From NCBI RefSeq assembly GCF_016026235.1, contig NZ_CP065613.1: 64,000 nt of DNA. One strand, given 5' to 3'. How positions within the stretch are numbered: position 1 is the stretch's first letter; each line of letters starts with the position of its first letter. A model generated the notes under the pieces. It was given only the letters and a program-made list of their open reading frames with translations, had not been told where the DNA came from and made no database searches. Positions 8,588 to 58,669 of the stretch are shown here, piece after piece. Position numbers and translations under genes: made by a program. The stretch comes from Escherichia coli (lineage in GTDB: Bacteria > Pseudomonadota > Gammaproteobacteria > Enterobacterales > Enterobacteriaceae).

Positions 8588-9523
8588 TTATTTCACTTCA
8601 ACCACATTCAGCCGTAACTCATCCAACTGATTTTCATCTTCTTCTGGCTGCCAGCCCGCCGGTTGTAGTGGGATCTCTTCGCGATCAAACGCCAGATCAC
8701 CCCCGTTAACCACTTCAGAACCGTGGGTGATGCCTTTGAAATCGAACAGGTTGGTATCGCACAGATGCGACGGCACCACATTCTGCATCGCGCTGAACAT
8801 CGTCTCGATACGCCCTGGATAACGTTTATCCCAGTCCCGCAACATGTCAGCAATCACCTGACGTTGCAGGTTAGGCTGTGAACCGCACAGGTTGCACGGA
8901 ATAATCGGGAACGCTTTTGCATCGGCAAATCGCTGAATATCTTTCTCGCGGCAGTAGGCCAGCGGACGAATAACGATATGTTTGCCATCATCGCTCATCA
9001 GTTTCGGAGGCATACCTTTCATCTTGCCGCCGTAGAACATATTTAAGAACAACGTTTGCAGGATATCGTCACGATGGTGGCCCAACGCGATCTTCGTCGC
9101 CCCCAGTTCCGTTGCGGTGCGATAAAGGATACCGCGACGTAGCCGAGAACACAGTGAGCAAGTGGTTTTGCCCTCTGGAATCTTCTCTTTCACGATACCG
9201 TAAGTGTTCTCTTCAACAATCTTGTACTCAACGCCCAGCTTTTCAAGATACTCGGGCAGAACGTGTTCCGGGAAGCCCGGTTGCTTTTGATCGAGGTTAA
9301 CAGCCACCAGCGAAAAATTGATTGGCGCGCTTTGCTGCAAATTGCGCAGAATCTCCAGCATGGTATAGCTGTCTTTACCCCCGGAGAGGCAAACCATGAT
9401 GCGATCGCCTTCTTCAATCATATTGAAGTCAGCAATGGCTTCGCCCACGTTACGACGCAGACGTTTTTGTAATTTGTTCAGATTGTATTGTTCTTTCTTT
9501 GTAATTTGTTGATTTTCTTGCAT
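8588..9523 (-). CDS. ttcA: tRNA 2-thiocytidine synthase TtcA; its 5' end is supplied by the prophage junction
   Basis: 311 aa with SGGKDS PP-loop and Cys motifs; start [17 protein letters not shown] overlaps the att core. Confidence 0.9.
9474..9499. other. Prophage att core, left copy (TTGTTCAGATTGTATTGTTCTTTCTT)
   Basis: 26-bp sequence identical to 57929..57954; sits in the first codons of ttcA next to the integrase gene. Confidence 0.65.
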
Positions 9524-9574
9524 TATTTCAGTTCTCTGGTACTAAATGGGGCAAATTGGGGGCAAACTTTGCAA

Positions 9575-10810
9575 CTACGATAACCGCGCATTCAACATGG
9601 CTATCTGTTCGTCGTTCATGTCATCAATCCACATACCGTAAATTTCATACACCATTTGCGCAGTTTCATGCCCCATCTGGCTGGCTATAAATGCCGGGTT
9701 CGCTCCTGCCGTCAACAGCCAGCAGGCAAAAGTATGTCGCGTATGGTACGGATTACGGCGGCGAATACCAGCACGTTTTACTGCTGCATTCCATCTCGCA
9801 CCCAAACTGCTTACCGAGTAATAAGGTTTCTGTTTTCCGTTACACATCCTGGGCATGAAAACAAAATGCAGTTTTTGCTTTTCGGTTCTGCCGTACTCCC
9901 GATGATAAAAAGTGATTTCGCTTTTGCGATGATGCCCGGTCAGTTTGTATTGCTCCTTCAGTGCTTCAAGAGCTGGCTGTAGTAATGTTACCGTCCGGAT
10001 CCCGGCATTTGTTTTTGGGGGACCGAACATATCAAGTATCGTCAGGTTTCTTCTGACATTCACAATTCCCTTCTCGAAATCCACATCCTCCCACGCCAGA
10101 GCTGCCAGTTCCCCGTGACGAAGCCCGGAGTAAACGGCAAATTTCCACAAGTTTTGGCTCTGTCCTTTTTCACTTTCCATTAATGCATTGAATTCTGTTT
10201 TAGATAACGGGTCAGGCTTTATTCTGTTTCGCTGTAATTTTTTTACTCCTTCAAATGGTTTGGTTGATATAAATCCCGACTGATACGCAAAACGTAACAG
10301 CGAACAGAGCAGGGCGATATAGTTATCAACTGTGCGCACGGTTCTTCCTTTTTTGTTGGATCTTGGATTATCCAGGTAAAGCGTTTCTCCATGCAGCAGT
10401 TCATTCCGGTAGTTTAAGATATCGCTATAACGAATATATGATATCGGGGTACTTTCACAAATTATTATTCTGAGTGTTTTTAATTGTGATTTCGTTTTCT
10501 TCATTGTGTTTGTTGTTAACTCTGTCTCTTTAATTTTTGTCCAGATATCACAAAGCTCCCCGAACGTTTTTATGACTCTCGTTGTCACCATTTTTGCCCC
10601 AGTGCTGGACTGGGGAAAACGTCTTAAATACTCAAATTCACCGGAGTTTATTTCATGAACTATCAGCGCTCTTAAATTTCCGGCCTTTTTAATATTACTG
10701 TTTGTAATCTCCCAGCCTTTTAATGTTTCCCGACATCGTTTTCCTCGAAACATGAACCAGATGCGAATGTTTCTACCTCTAATCTCGACACCTGTTGGTA
10801 ATTTAGACAT
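9575..10810 (-). CDS. Phage integrase (tyrosine recombinase), IntR-like
   Basis: 411 aa; C-terminal catalytic region (…HTRHTFACWLLTAGANPAFIASQMGHE…YGMW) typical of lambda-family integrases; adjacent to the att site. Confidence 0.85.
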   Translation of the reverse strand: MSKLPTGVEIRGRNIRIWFMFRGKRCRETLKGWEITNSNIKKAGNLRALIVHEINSGEFEYLRRFPQSSTGAKMVTTRVIKTFGELCDIWTKIKETELTTNTMKKTKSQLKTLRIIICESTPISYIRYSDILNYRNELLHGETLYLDNPRSNKKGRTVRTVDNYIALLCSLLRFAYQSGFISTKPFEGVKKLQRNRIKPDPLSKTEFNALMESEKGQSQNLWKFAVYSGLRHGELAALAWEDVDFEKGIVNVRRNLTILDMFGPPKTNAGIRTVTLLQPALEALKEQYKLTGHHRKSEITFYHREYGRTEKQKLHFVFMPRMCNGKQKPYYSVSSLGARWNAAVKRAGIRRRNPYHTRHTFACWLLTAGANPAFIASQMGHETAQMVYEIYGMWIDDMNDEQIAMLNARLS

Positions 10811-54117: not shown

Positions 54118-54975
54118 CTAATTGGGTGATAACAGATCCTGTGTATGGGCGTTTCCCTTTGTGCGTGCGTTGATGCTGGTAACGGTAAACGTCATGATGA
54201 ACACGACCGCGAATAAGACGACAATCGTCGGAGCTGGTGCGCTGTCGATAAAAAAGGACAGCCAGACACCAGTCATTGACACTATTACCGATATGCCAGT
54301 CGCCAGTAGGAGCGCAATATGAAAGCGTTGTGTCAGGAGTACTGCAATGGCGCCAGGCGCAATGAGCAGAGAAATAGAGAGAATGATACCTACTGCTTTC
54401 AGCGTCGCCACAATGGTCAGGGAAACCATGCACAGCAGCCCATAATGCAGCCATCTCGTATGCAAACCGCTTACCTGCGCCTGTTGATAATCAAAGCTGA
54501 ACAGCAAAAAATCCCGCCATTTTACGCTAATAACAAGTGTAACCAGCCCGGCAATAATCACCGTCTGGATTATATCGCCGATGGTTATCCCGAGCATGTC
54601 GCCGAAAAGAATATGGTCAAGATGTACGTCTGGTTTGATTGCAATATACAAGATCAGACCTGCGGCAAACATGCCAGAAAAAACAATCCCCATAACTGTA
54701 TCTTGCTTGATTCGGCTGTTGTCTTTCAGGTATCCCGTCGCCACCGCGCAGAATACTCCGGCGACGAATGCCCCTGTAGCCAGAGGTAACCCCAGAATCC
54801 AGGTAAGCACGATGCCAGGAAAAACCGCATGACTCATCGCGTCACCCATCAGTGCCCAACCTTTCAGGACCAGAAAGACCGACAGCAGCGCACAGGGTAT
54901 GGAAACTACCAGTGAAATCAGCAGTGCGTGACTCATAAAGGTGAACTGCAGTGGCTCCAGTAATAATGCCATCAT
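54118..54975 (-). CDS. sitD: Mn/Fe ABC transporter permease SitD
   Basis: 285-aa polytopic membrane protein; last gene of a four-gene operon with overlapping stops and starts. Confidence 0.8.
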   Translation of the reverse strand: MMALLLEPLQFTFMSHALLISLVVSIPCALLSVFLVLKGWALMGDAMSHAVFPGIVLTWILGLPLATGAFVAGVFCAVATGYLKDNSRIKQDTVMGIVFSGMFAAGLILYIAIKPDVHLDHILFGDMLGITIGDIIQTVIIAGLVTLVISVKWRDFLLFSFDYQQAQVSGLHTRWLHYGLLCMVSLTIVATLKAVGIILSISLLIAPGAIAVLLTQRFHIALLLATGISVIVSMTGVWLSFFIDSAPAPTIVVLFAVVFIMTFTVTSINARTKGNAHTQDLLSPN

Positions 54976-55829
54976 GAGCGATCCTCCAGCGCTTTATGCG
55001 CACGCCGACGATTTGCCAAAAGTCCATGGGTGGGCGCAAATACAAATGCTAAAAGAAACAGCAGTGTCTGCGCCACCACGATGATTCCACCTGTCGCGCC
55101 GTCCAGAAAGTAACTGACCCACGCGCCGAGGAAACTGGTTACACTGCCAATAGTTACAGCAATTATGAGCAGGCGGGGAAAACGATCGGTTAACAACCAT
55201 GCTGTTGCACCGGGAGTCACCACCAGACAGATCACCAGAAAGGCACCAACCGTTTGCAGCGCCGCAACGGTCGAAACCGACAGCAGGGTGAAGAAGAGGA
55301 TTTTTAATCTGCCCGGATGTAATCCAATAGCACGGGCGTGATTCTCGTCGAAAAAGGTCACCATAAGATCTTTCCATTTGAAAAAAAGCACGATGATCGA
55401 GAGAATGCCAATGATAGTGAGTTGCAGGATATCCGCCGGATCGATTGCCAGAATATTGCCCAGGACGATGGTCTGAATGTTCACGGATGTCGGGTTCAAT
55501 GACACCATAAACAGCCCCAGGCCAAAAAAGGACGAGAAGATCAGGCCGATGATGGCATCTTCTTTTAAGCGGGTGCGTTGGTTAAGAAACAGCATGCTGC
55601 CCGCTGCCAGTCCGCCGGAAAAGAAGGCTCCCAGAGAAAACGGAAGCCCCAGCATATATGCCCCCGCAACACCCGGGACAATAGAGTGCGACAGCGCATC
55701 GCCAATCAGCGACCAGCCTTTTAGCATCAGATAGCATGACAGGAAAGCGCAGAGACCGCCGACCATTGCCGAGACCCACATCGCATTGAGCATATATTCA
55801 TAGCTGAAGGGTTCCAGTAGCACGTTCAT
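54972..55829 (-). CDS. sitC: Mn/Fe ABC transporter permease SitC
   Basis: 285-aa membrane protein, paralogous to the next permease. Confidence 0.8.
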
Positions 55830-56653
55830 CTTGCTTCCCTCTGCACCGCTGACGGTCGATGTGCCACAAAAGGGCGTTCATCGTCAGTAATAATGCTTTC
55901 TTCCGAGCCGTTAAGTGTGACATGGCGCAGTACGCCGCTAAAAGCCAGCTCCAGGTTCTCGGCTGTAAAAGTGGTGTCTGTCGGCCCGCTTGCCAGGACG
56001 GTGCCTTTGACCATGACCGTATAATCGCAAAATGTCGTGACTGAGCCGAGATTGTGCGTTGAGACAAGCATCGTTTTGCCTTCCGCGCGTAACTCCCTCA
56101 ACAGGCTGATGATTTTCGCTTCGGTTTTCACATCAACGCCGGTAAAAGGTTCATCCAGCAGGATCACATCACCCTGCTGTGCAATCGCTCTCGCCAGAAA
56201 GACGCGTTTCTTTTGTCCACCGGAAAGCTCGCCGATTTGACGATGGCGAAAATCCACCATATCGACACGTTCCAGCGCATCGGTGACAATCTGACGATCC
56301 CTCTTTTTGGCTATACGCAACATACCCATATGCCCATAGCGGCCCATCATCACCACATCTTCCACCAGTACAGGAAATGACCAGTCAACCTCTTCTGACT
56401 GAGGGACGTAGGCAACCAGGTTTTTCTGTAGCGCCTGTCGCGTGGGAATACCCAGAACAGATATCTTTCCGCTGGTCAGACGCACAAATCCCATAATCGC
56501 TTTAAACAACGTCGATTTTCCGGAACCGTTTACCCCAACCAGAGCGGCAATAGATCCACTTGGTACTGTGAAGGATGCATCGCGCAGTGCTGTGTGCCCG
56601 TTACGCCAGGTGACAGTAACATCATTAACGACAATGCCTGCAGATTGCATCAT
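55826..56653 (-). CDS. sitB: Mn/Fe ABC transporter ATP-binding protein SitB
   Basis: GVNGSGKST Walker A, LSGGQ signature, ILLDEP Walker B. Confidence 0.85.
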
Positions 56654-57567
56654 TATTTCTCCCTTTTCCCGGCTTTAATTCCCTGTACCAGCGTACTGGT
56701 AGTAACCTTAAGAAGGTCGATATACGTAGGTACCGGGCCGTTTTCTGTGCTCAGGGAATCGACATAGAGCACACCGCCGTAGTGTGCGCCGGTTTCACGC
56801 GCAACCTGACGCGCTGGTTTATCGGAAATCGTACTCTCGCTAAAGACTGCCGGGATATGATTTTTCTTAACTATATCAACAACCTTACGTACCTGCTGCG
56901 GTGTTCCTTGTTGATCGGCATTAATCGGCCACAGATAAAGCTCTTTTAGCCCCAAATCGCGTGCGAGATAAGAAAAAGCCCCTTCACTGGTGACCATCCA
57001 TCGCTGATTCTCAGGGAGTTCCGTAATCTGCTTACGCAGGGGGGCAAGGGTTTGGGTAATCTTGGCTTTATAAGTATCGGCATTACGTTGGTAGGTTTGT
57101 GCATTTGCCGGATCGTATTTTATCAACGCATCACGAATATTATCGACGTAAATCAGAGCATTATCTGGCGACATCCATGCATGGGGATTAGGTTTGCCCT
57201 CATAGGGTCCTTCGGTGATCCCTACTGGCGTCACACCCGAAGAGACAATTACTTCTGGAACCCCATTGAGATGCTGGTAAAAGCGTTGGAACCACAATTC
57301 CAGATTCATACCATTGGCGAGAATCAGTTGTGCCCCCTGCGCACGTTTAATATCGCCAGGGGTAGGCTGATACTCATGAATTTCTGCACCAGGCTTGGTT
57401 ATGGATGAGACTTCTGCAGCATCTCCAGCCACGTTTTTGGCCATATCCGCGATGATGGTAAATGTTGTAATGACCTTGAATTTTTCAGTTGCACTTGCCT
57501 GAAATGCGATCGAGCAGGTGAGGGCGAGGCACCCCAAGAGCATGGTTACTTTTTTTATTGAGTGCAT
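56653..57567 (-). CDS. sitA: Periplasmic Mn/Fe-binding protein SitA
   Basis: 304 aa with signal peptide; closely resembles SitA as I recall it ([21 protein letters not shown]…). Confidence 0.85.
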
Positions 57568-57600
57568 AATTTAGTACCTATAGTGAGCAAAATTAGAACA

Positions 57601-57620
57601 AACATAGCAACGGCTATGTT
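57601..57620. promoter_or_regulatory. MntR-box-like inverted repeat (AACATAGC-N4-GCTATGTT) upstream of sitA
   Basis: Perfect 8-bp arms. Confidence 0.5.
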
Positions 57621-57641
57621 TTATAGCATAACCTATACAAA

Positions 57642-57662
57642 ATGAAAATAATTATCATTAAC
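57642..57662. promoter_or_regulatory. Fur-box-like site (GAAAATAATTATCATTAAC)
   Basis: Similar to the Fur consensus GATAATGATAATCATTATC. Confidence 0.5.
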
Positions 57663-57928
57663 AGCTTTGAGGCCTAAAACAGGGATTAGGTTGTTTCCTG
57701 CTGGCGACATGATATTGAGGAAAAAAGTAGAGCAGCTATTAGGCTTTGAAATGACTTTATGAGGAAAATTGTTGATGGCAAAAATGGGGCAAAACGCTGT
57801 AGAAGGGGCAAAAAAGGGGCAAAAAAAGAGTGGGTTATCGTAGCTTATTGTTGTCGCTGATAATGTTTAACATATTGAAAAATAAATAAAATACTTATGA
57901 GTCAGATAGTTGTGATTTTTGCCCTTAC

Positions 57929-57954
57929 TTGTTCAGATTGTATTGTTCTTTCTT
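57929..57954. other. Prophage att core, right copy
   Basis: Identical 26 bp to 9474..9499. Confidence 0.65.
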
Positions 57955-57978
57955 GCTAATTTCTTGATTTTGCGACAT
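57929..57978 (-). pseudogene. ttcC-like remnant (original 5' end of ttcA displaced by the prophage)
   Basis: Minus-strand ATG at 57978 encodes [17 protein letters not shown], matching the TtcA N-terminus, then runs into prophage DNA. Confidence 0.55.
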
Positions 57979-58153
57979 TTAAAAGCGACTCAATTCGTTA
58001 TATGGCATCAGAAGAGTATGCGTCATGCCGGAACGCCCAGCATAAGAAATCTGATATAAAAACTGTGGCGTGTATGGTACGGATTAGAGGGGAAAATGTC
58101 AGCACATTTGCGAAATGAATCAAAAAGCCCGCAGCAATGTGCGGGCGTTAGTG

Positions 58154-58669
<516 letters not shown>

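Follow-up and report, generated by a model that had tools for sequence, protein, structure and literature searches.

Arm-type sites are a textbook element of phage attachment sites. In attP of phage lambda they comprise P1, P2 and P'1-P'3, i.e. two copies of the arm motif C/AAGTCACTAT in the P arm and three in the P' arm, and their binding by the integrase (Int) has been shown. Integrases of the IntBPP-1 subgroup, among them the putative integrases of BPP-1, of an Stx2a phage and of Gifsy-2, possess the arm-binding domain DUF3596/PF12167 (Smyshlyaev et al. 2021, PMC8138268); the consulted sections of that paper classify the proteins and hold no description of arm sites. In K-12 Rac, binding has been resolved only to fragments of ~290 bp in an excision study (PMC4632033). 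A literature search that covered few subscription journals returned no arm sites described for Rac IntR, for the Stx-phage integrases treated below or for PF12167 integrases generally; an earlier description may exist.

The window analysed here, i.e. the whole stretch of 64,000 nucleotides from Escherichia coli contig NZ_CP065613.1, carries a 48-kb Rac-type prophage within ttcA, with sitABCD as cargo at its right end (Table 1). We read three copies of GGGGCAAAA near this right end, with a probability of roughly 80%, as predicted P-arm arm-type (accessory) sites of the Rac-type integrase, and the copies at 9548 and 9559 near the left end as the matching P' set. As in lambda, a short motif unrelated to the core occurs about five times over both arms, in ~250 bp; putative IHF sites (consensus matches) separate the arm sites from the core. 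As in lambda, Int has an N-terminal arm-binding domain of three strands plus a helix, and a small excisionase gene lies beside int. Unlike in lambda, the motif is WWTGGGGCAWAA, the split is mirrored, with three (plus one degenerate) copies in P and two in P', Int carries an arm-binding domain from a different Pfam family (PF12167), and the arm sites are predicted ones. The integrase possesses this N-terminal arm-DNA-binding domain (PF12167, E 6.6e-26) besides a core-binding domain and a tyrosine-recombinase catalytic domain (PF00589, E 2.7e-23). It shares PF12167 with the IntBPP-1 subgroup and is 40-44% identical to Stx-phage integrases whose attPs share the motif. To the arm-binding domains of P4-like and HPI integrases (PDB 3jtz, 3rmp, 3ju0) there is fold-level similarity only, with a modest score; a search of the Int sequence against the PDB returned catalytic-domain matches only, and no detectable relationship to the arm-binding domains of these three entries.

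Table 1. Attachment-site features and neighbouring genes, with positions in the window
Feature	Position	Strand	Remarks
ttcA	8588-9523	-	reads through left core copy
attL core	9474-9499	.	26-bp exact direct repeat with attR (repeat search)
IHF-like site AATCAACAAATTA	9502-9514	-	perfect IHF consensus; between core and P' sites; consensus match only
Predicted P'-arm site ATGGGGCAAAT	9546-9556 (motif GGGGCAAAT from 9548)	+	identical in K-12 Rac
Predicted P'-arm site TGGGGGCAAAC	9557-9567 (motif GGGGCAAAC from 9559)	+	11 bp past the preceding site; 8 bp before int stop
Integrase, 411 aa	9575-10810	-	407/411 (99%) identical to K-12 IntR
Excisionase, 71 aa	10812-11027	-	PF06806; 100% identical to K-12 XisR (YdaQ)
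sitABCD	54118-57567	-	sitA start 57567; followed by uspF, ompN, pyruvate:ferredoxin oxidoreductase gene
Degenerate outermost fourth copy TGGCAAAAA	57776-57784	+	immediately 5' of first copy; outer edge of conserved P arm
Predicted P-arm site 1, ATGGGGCAAAACG	57784-57796 (core motif 57786-57794)	+	kept in K-12 Rac; GGGACAAAA in O157, one substitution
Predicted P-arm site 2, AAGGGGCAAAA	57803-57813 (core motif 57805-57813)	+	invariant across six E. coli P arms
Predicted P-arm site 3, AAGGGGCAAAA	57814-57824 (core motif 57816-57824)	+	11 bp past site 2; invariant across six E. coli P arms
IHF-like site TTTCAATATGTTA	57868-57880	-	differs from WATCAANNNNTTR at one position; separates arm sites from core; consensus match only
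Inverted GGGCAAAAA	57916-57924	-	abuts attR core
Displaced original ttcA 5' end, 17 codons + stop	57925-57978	-	K-12 equivalent is pseudogene ttcC, end of cryptic prophage Rac
attR core TTGTTCAGATTGTATTGTTCTTTCTT	57929-57954	.	26 bp identical to attL; crossover within core

The right-end array (57784-57828) reads ATGGGGCAAAACGctgtagAAGGGGCAAAAAAGGGGCAAAAAAAG, with ATGGGGCAAAACG at 57784-57796 and AAGGGGCAAAAAAGGGGCAAAAAAAG at 57803-57828. Exact copies of GGGGCAAAA start at 57786, 57805 and 57816, all on the plus strand, with spacings of 19 and 11 bp, and are located 105-143 bp from the attR core on its phage side. The two strands of the window together contain six such copies, compared with 1.15 +/- 0.98 in shuffled sequences (six or more in 0 of 100 shuffles). 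The original prediction, which had reported three close copies at 57784-57826 between the sit promoter and attR, is thereby borne out; its placement agrees with the sitA start on one side of the array and the attR core on the other. It had missed the two P'-arm copies, the inverted GGGCAAAAA and the concentration of GGGGCA in the att arms.

At the left end, the stretch from the attL core to the int stop codon reads ATGGGGCAAATTGGGGGCAAAC and contains two further copies of the motif on the same strand, 11 bp apart. These are found 49-68 bp phage-side of the attL core and have the same orientation as in the P arm. The site at 9546-9556 has equivalents in PHB10, Klebsiella phage 2, P14437, BP-4795, Stx1_14040 and the viral contig loci L064 and L081. 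GGGGCA occurs 39 times in the window, and 5 of these 39 lie inside the 320 bp of the phage-side att arms (binomial P ~1.6e-6). The motif is unrelated to the core and is repeated in both arms of attP, at most ~150 bp from the crossover. Replication iterons, in comparison, are clustered at an origin, in or beside the initiator gene. The two sets found here are ~48 kb apart at the prophage ends, and in attP they flank the att core in both arms beside int, and not at a replication origin. Of the suggestion that the copies are iteron-like binding sites, the iterated putative protein-binding sites near a prophage end stand, and the replication sense does not.

The inverted GGGCAAAAA beside the attR core was considered as a sixth arm site and dropped. 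The P arm of O157 (which reads TTTTTACTC there), PHB10, P14437 and BP-4795 do not conserve it, and it is probably a chance match, non-functional as an arm site.

Both IHF-like sites are matches to the consensus WATCAANNNNTTR in AT-rich DNA. The 13-mer TTTCAATATGTTA is present in identical form, again as a consensus match only, at the equivalent place of the P arm in Stx phage P14437, and TAACA(T/C)ATTGAAAAA is kept across all six E. coli P arms. The PHB10 equivalent of the site at 9502-9514 is AATCAACAAAATA. In the joined attP, which spans ~250 bp in total, the order is three (plus one degenerate) copies, ~35 bp, IHF-like site, ~50 bp, core, perfect IHF consensus, ~30 bp, two copies, int stop. 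A contiguous arrangement of P arm, core and P' arm is found naturally in phage PHB10 (downstream of int) and in plasmid pAPEC-O2-ColV (NC_007675.1, L097 ~1501-1960). The latter contains sitA, P arm, core, P' arm with both GGGGCA and the 3' end of int without interruption; this stretch corresponds to window 57560-57954 joined to 9500-9600. This suggests that pAPEC-O2-ColV acquired its sit operon from a Rac-type sit phage in its excised, circular form.

The boundary between the sit cassette and the P arm is visible from both sides. In sit loci of ColV-type plasmids ~84% homology extends from 57560 to ~57782 and stops at an IS1 (pEC244_2). P-arm homology of K-12 Rac (which lacks sit), BL21 and O157 begins at 57769-57776, for K-12 Rac at ~57772. 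Matches likewise start at 57769-57776 in E. coli genomes with differing cargo; of 5426 genomes, 1787 contain 80% or more of 57740-57990. Because the plasmid sit homology ends and the K-12 Rac homology starts at the repeats, the repeats, judged by these limits, are part of att and not of sit, and form the outermost conserved portion of the P arm, which the sit cassette abuts. At the junction itself (57772-57782) a TGGCAAA overlap is common to the window, the plasmid sit locus and K-12 Rac. On the sit side, a perfect palindrome AAACATAGCAACGGCTATGTTT (57600-57621), flagged as terminator-like in the scan, is followed by AT-rich AAATGAAAATAATTATCATTAAC (57640-57663); the two resemble, and may be, sit-promoter operators for MntR and Fur.

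The same boundary bears on the idea that the copies are upstream regulatory sites of sitABCD or part of a small protein-coding gene. They are located ~220 bp upstream of the sitA start, and ORFs of 33-57 codons cross the repeats, annotated by PGAP/RefSeq as a hypothetical protein in some genomes (WP_001157925.1 in BL21, L100 97-270; WP_159140198.1 in ETEC4088, L099 53-208). Regulatory sites of sit would be expected to travel with the operon, but homology to the sit loci of ColV-type plasmids breaks off immediately ahead of the repeats, and Rac prophages without sit retain them. Promoter, terminator and Rfam scans of 57400-58300 detected no Rfam family or convincing promoter over the repeats. 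For a coding function no frame is common to the different contexts: the start region differs, the window has no start codon in the BL21 frame, and copy-number changes of 11 and 31 bp break any frame. The small ORF across the repeats was therefore rejected for want of any conserved frame, and since the frame differs between contexts both RefSeq entries are probably false gene calls. We regard a regulatory or coding role of this kind as extremely unlikely.

The number of copies varies between strains. ETEC4088 (L099) possesses an extra GGGGCAAAA unit of 11 bp relative to window 57797-57803, resulting in four copies, while in pAPEC-O2-ColV a 31-bp deletion has collapsed the three P-arm copies to one. 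Such differences indicate that the array is prone to slippage, and some copies may be dispensable. They also fit the view that slippage in A-rich DNA produced the copies without any function, or that they were left behind by recombination between sit cassette and prophage end: the unit is short and rich in A, an exact 11-bp tandem duplication makes up sites 2 and 3, and the sit/Rac junction lies a few bases to the left. Yet K-12 Rac, BL21 and O157 all possess the repeats without having a sit cassette. The hexamer also reappears, at like number, orientation and core distance, in attPs of integrases that are 43-69% identical, use other cores and have unrelated flanks (see below). Motif positions are, furthermore, better conserved than their neighbours, and the tandem pairs of viral contigs show linkage to the 3' end of int. 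The comparative data thus largely refute a slippage or scar origin, which we consider very unlikely, and argue for arm-type sites.

Relatives were collected by tblastn in phage records. PHB10 (Int 69% identical, ttcA-like core) possesses three copies of TTTTGCCCCTA, given in int orientation, and one degenerate copy in its P arm, and two TGCCCC, 11 bp apart, in its P' arm. The P arm of P14437 (Int 44%, wrbA type) contains TTGGGGCG, TTGGGGCAAAG, TTGGGGCATAT and TTGGGGCAAAAAAG, its P' arm TTGGGGCACGTCTGGGGCACG. BP-4795 (Int 43%, yehV type) has four ATGGGGCAT with an 11-bp period plus ATGGGACAC in P, and ATGGGGCATACATGGGACAC in P'. The attPs of the window and of these three phages represent three different cores and insertion sites, and each contains GGGGCA five to six times, three to four times in P and once or twice in P', in one orientation. 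According to an unbiased k-mer scan GGGGCA is the only 6-mer present at least five times in each of the four (next best minimum 1); any 6-mer present at least four times in all four was obtained in 0 of 2000 shuffles. The P' pair occurs, furthermore, in L064 (~70% Int identity) and Klebsiella phage 2 LV-2017 and, with one copy degenerate (GGGACA), in L081 (~70% Int identity) and Stx1_14040, with unrelated flanks in all of them. The consensus of 26 motif instances is WWTGGGGCAWAA.

Motif and layout therefore follow the integrase lineage irrespective of core and flanks. A search of related prophage ends, proposed with the original prediction as a check, found the motif at every homologous junction examined. 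Its alternative of a recombination remnant is not borne out, as relatives with an Int identity of 43-69% and other insertion sites preserve the motif together with its copy number, orientation and spacing to the core. In the O157 P arm, which is 84% identical, 26 of 27 motif positions are identical, compared with 92 of 126 remaining positions (Fisher P 0.0097). A more distant integrase of the same domain family is that of Pseudomonas phage vB_Pae_BR319a (32% identical, L011 ~2700-2920), where GTTCCCA repeats flank a tRNA-like core on either side; such a switch of motif is expected if the motif tracks the integrase.

Nearly all IMG/VR loci from the integrase alignment end at the int stop, and usable P' arms were provided by L023, L064 and L081 only. 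Citrobacter phage phiNP (30% identity) was uninformative, another gene beginning straight after int. Both P' sites of Stx-phage-type and Klebsiella relatives fall within the 3'-terminal coding sequence of int (L006 59-110, L008 29-110, L010 ~2725-2760, L013 ~2735-2770). The otherwise variable C-terminal tail of Int in those relatives retains P-x-M-P-(H/Q), apparently dictated by the DNA motif.

The association was also followed in the reverse direction. Scanning viral contigs for the pattern TGGGGCA-N4-TGGGGCA yielded at least 128 matches in at least 120 loci. Among the matches listed, 58 of 128 (45%) are located at -53 to +40 bp relative to the int 3' end of a member of the IntR family, the encoded integrases being 23-99% identical to one of four query integrases; a random position would lie that close to an int end in ~1-2% of cases, by our own estimate from phage genome size. 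Orientation relative to int is uniform in 57 of the 58 int-adjoining pairs among the matches listed. Several of the remaining listed matches form multi-copy clusters at opposite contig ends (e.g. L107/L108, L170/L171), as expected for P arms.

The protein most plausible besides Int as a reader of the repeats is the excisionase, which would bend the P arm at three direct repeats and so favour excision, as in lambda (X1, X1.5, X2) and Gifsy-1. The tripartite Xis sites of Gifsy-1 and lambda likewise consist of three direct repeats, imperfect and closely spaced, within the P arm (PMC2603039), a DUF1233 excisionase accompanies Int in every motif-bearing relative, and XisR binds an attR-containing fragment (PMC4632033). 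With all relatives sharing the DUF1233 Xis family, covariation is unable to separate Int from Xis as reader. Unlike the Xis sites of Gifsy-1 and lambda, which would be confined to the P arm between arm sites and core, the motif is paired in the same orientation in the P' arm beside int, where Xis sites are unexpected, and it is present in the P' arm of the window and of all relatives examined. Liu et al. 2015 reported, moreover, that XisR shifts the AttR fragment (294 bp) and leaves AttM (291 bp) unshifted (PMC4632033), and the excisionase of the window is 100% identical to the protein used there. According to our primer mapping on K-12, AttM corresponds to L004 469-759 and contains the direct copies at 618, 637 and 648, far from its ends, as well as the inverted copy at 749; this one published gel shift is negative with all three repeats inside the fragment. 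AttR corresponds to L004 590-883, and beyond AttM it contains only core and host flank. As the motif is also found in the P' arm and AttM is not shifted by XisR, Int is favoured as reader of the repeats over Xis, the other protein named with the original prediction, and binding by XisR appears improbable. By the primer mapping, the shift by XisR itself requires the core or the host-side flank (L004 760-883, window 57929-58052) and not the P arm, which is unusual for an excisionase.

With the repeats read as arm-type sites, binding of Int to them and their role in recombination are inferred by analogy to lambda Int. The N-terminal arm-binding domain of IntR would grip the GGGGCA sites tightly, whereas its core-binding and catalytic domains would work on the 26-bp core, ~110-145 bp away. 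IHF may bend the DNA at 57868-57880 and 9502-9514, which would allow a single integrase molecule to span arm site and core. Which of the five sites are engaged, in combination with XisR, would then decide between integration and excision.

The prophage also alters the context of ttcA. The first 17 codons of ttcA and its upstream region are exchanged for the prophage version (window 9474-9575, 57925-57978). Since the prophage replaces the ttcA 5' end, ttcA is located directly downstream of int in the lysogen, on the same strand, and the P' sites lie 25-45 bp upstream of its start codon. Int bound to the P' pair could modulate ttcA expression in lysogens.

The element itself is ordinary and has otherwise the expected architecture of a lambda-type integration module; the arm motif of this integrase family seems to be undescribed. 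For Rac the analysis provides a concrete map of the attachment site that places the core, two IHF-like sites and five predicted arm sites. The cassette for the sit iron/manganese transporter is inserted exactly at the outer limit of the att site, which leaves the conserved att arm undisturbed. Integrases that share GGGGCA arms have diverged to ~40% identity and use different cores. We put forward, as a tentative and still doubtful proposal, that GGGGCA is an arm-site code common to a whole group of PF12167-type integrases in enterobacteria, among them Rac IntR and those of wrbA- and yehV-targeting Stx phages. Under such a code, the integrase of one prophage could bind the arms of another in the same cell and thereby help or block its excision; roughly one complete E. 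coli genome in three contains Rac, so that co-residence with Stx phages will be frequent. GGGGCA marks both ends of Stx-converting and other prophages of this integrase family, and would thus aid boundary calls and the reconstruction of attP.
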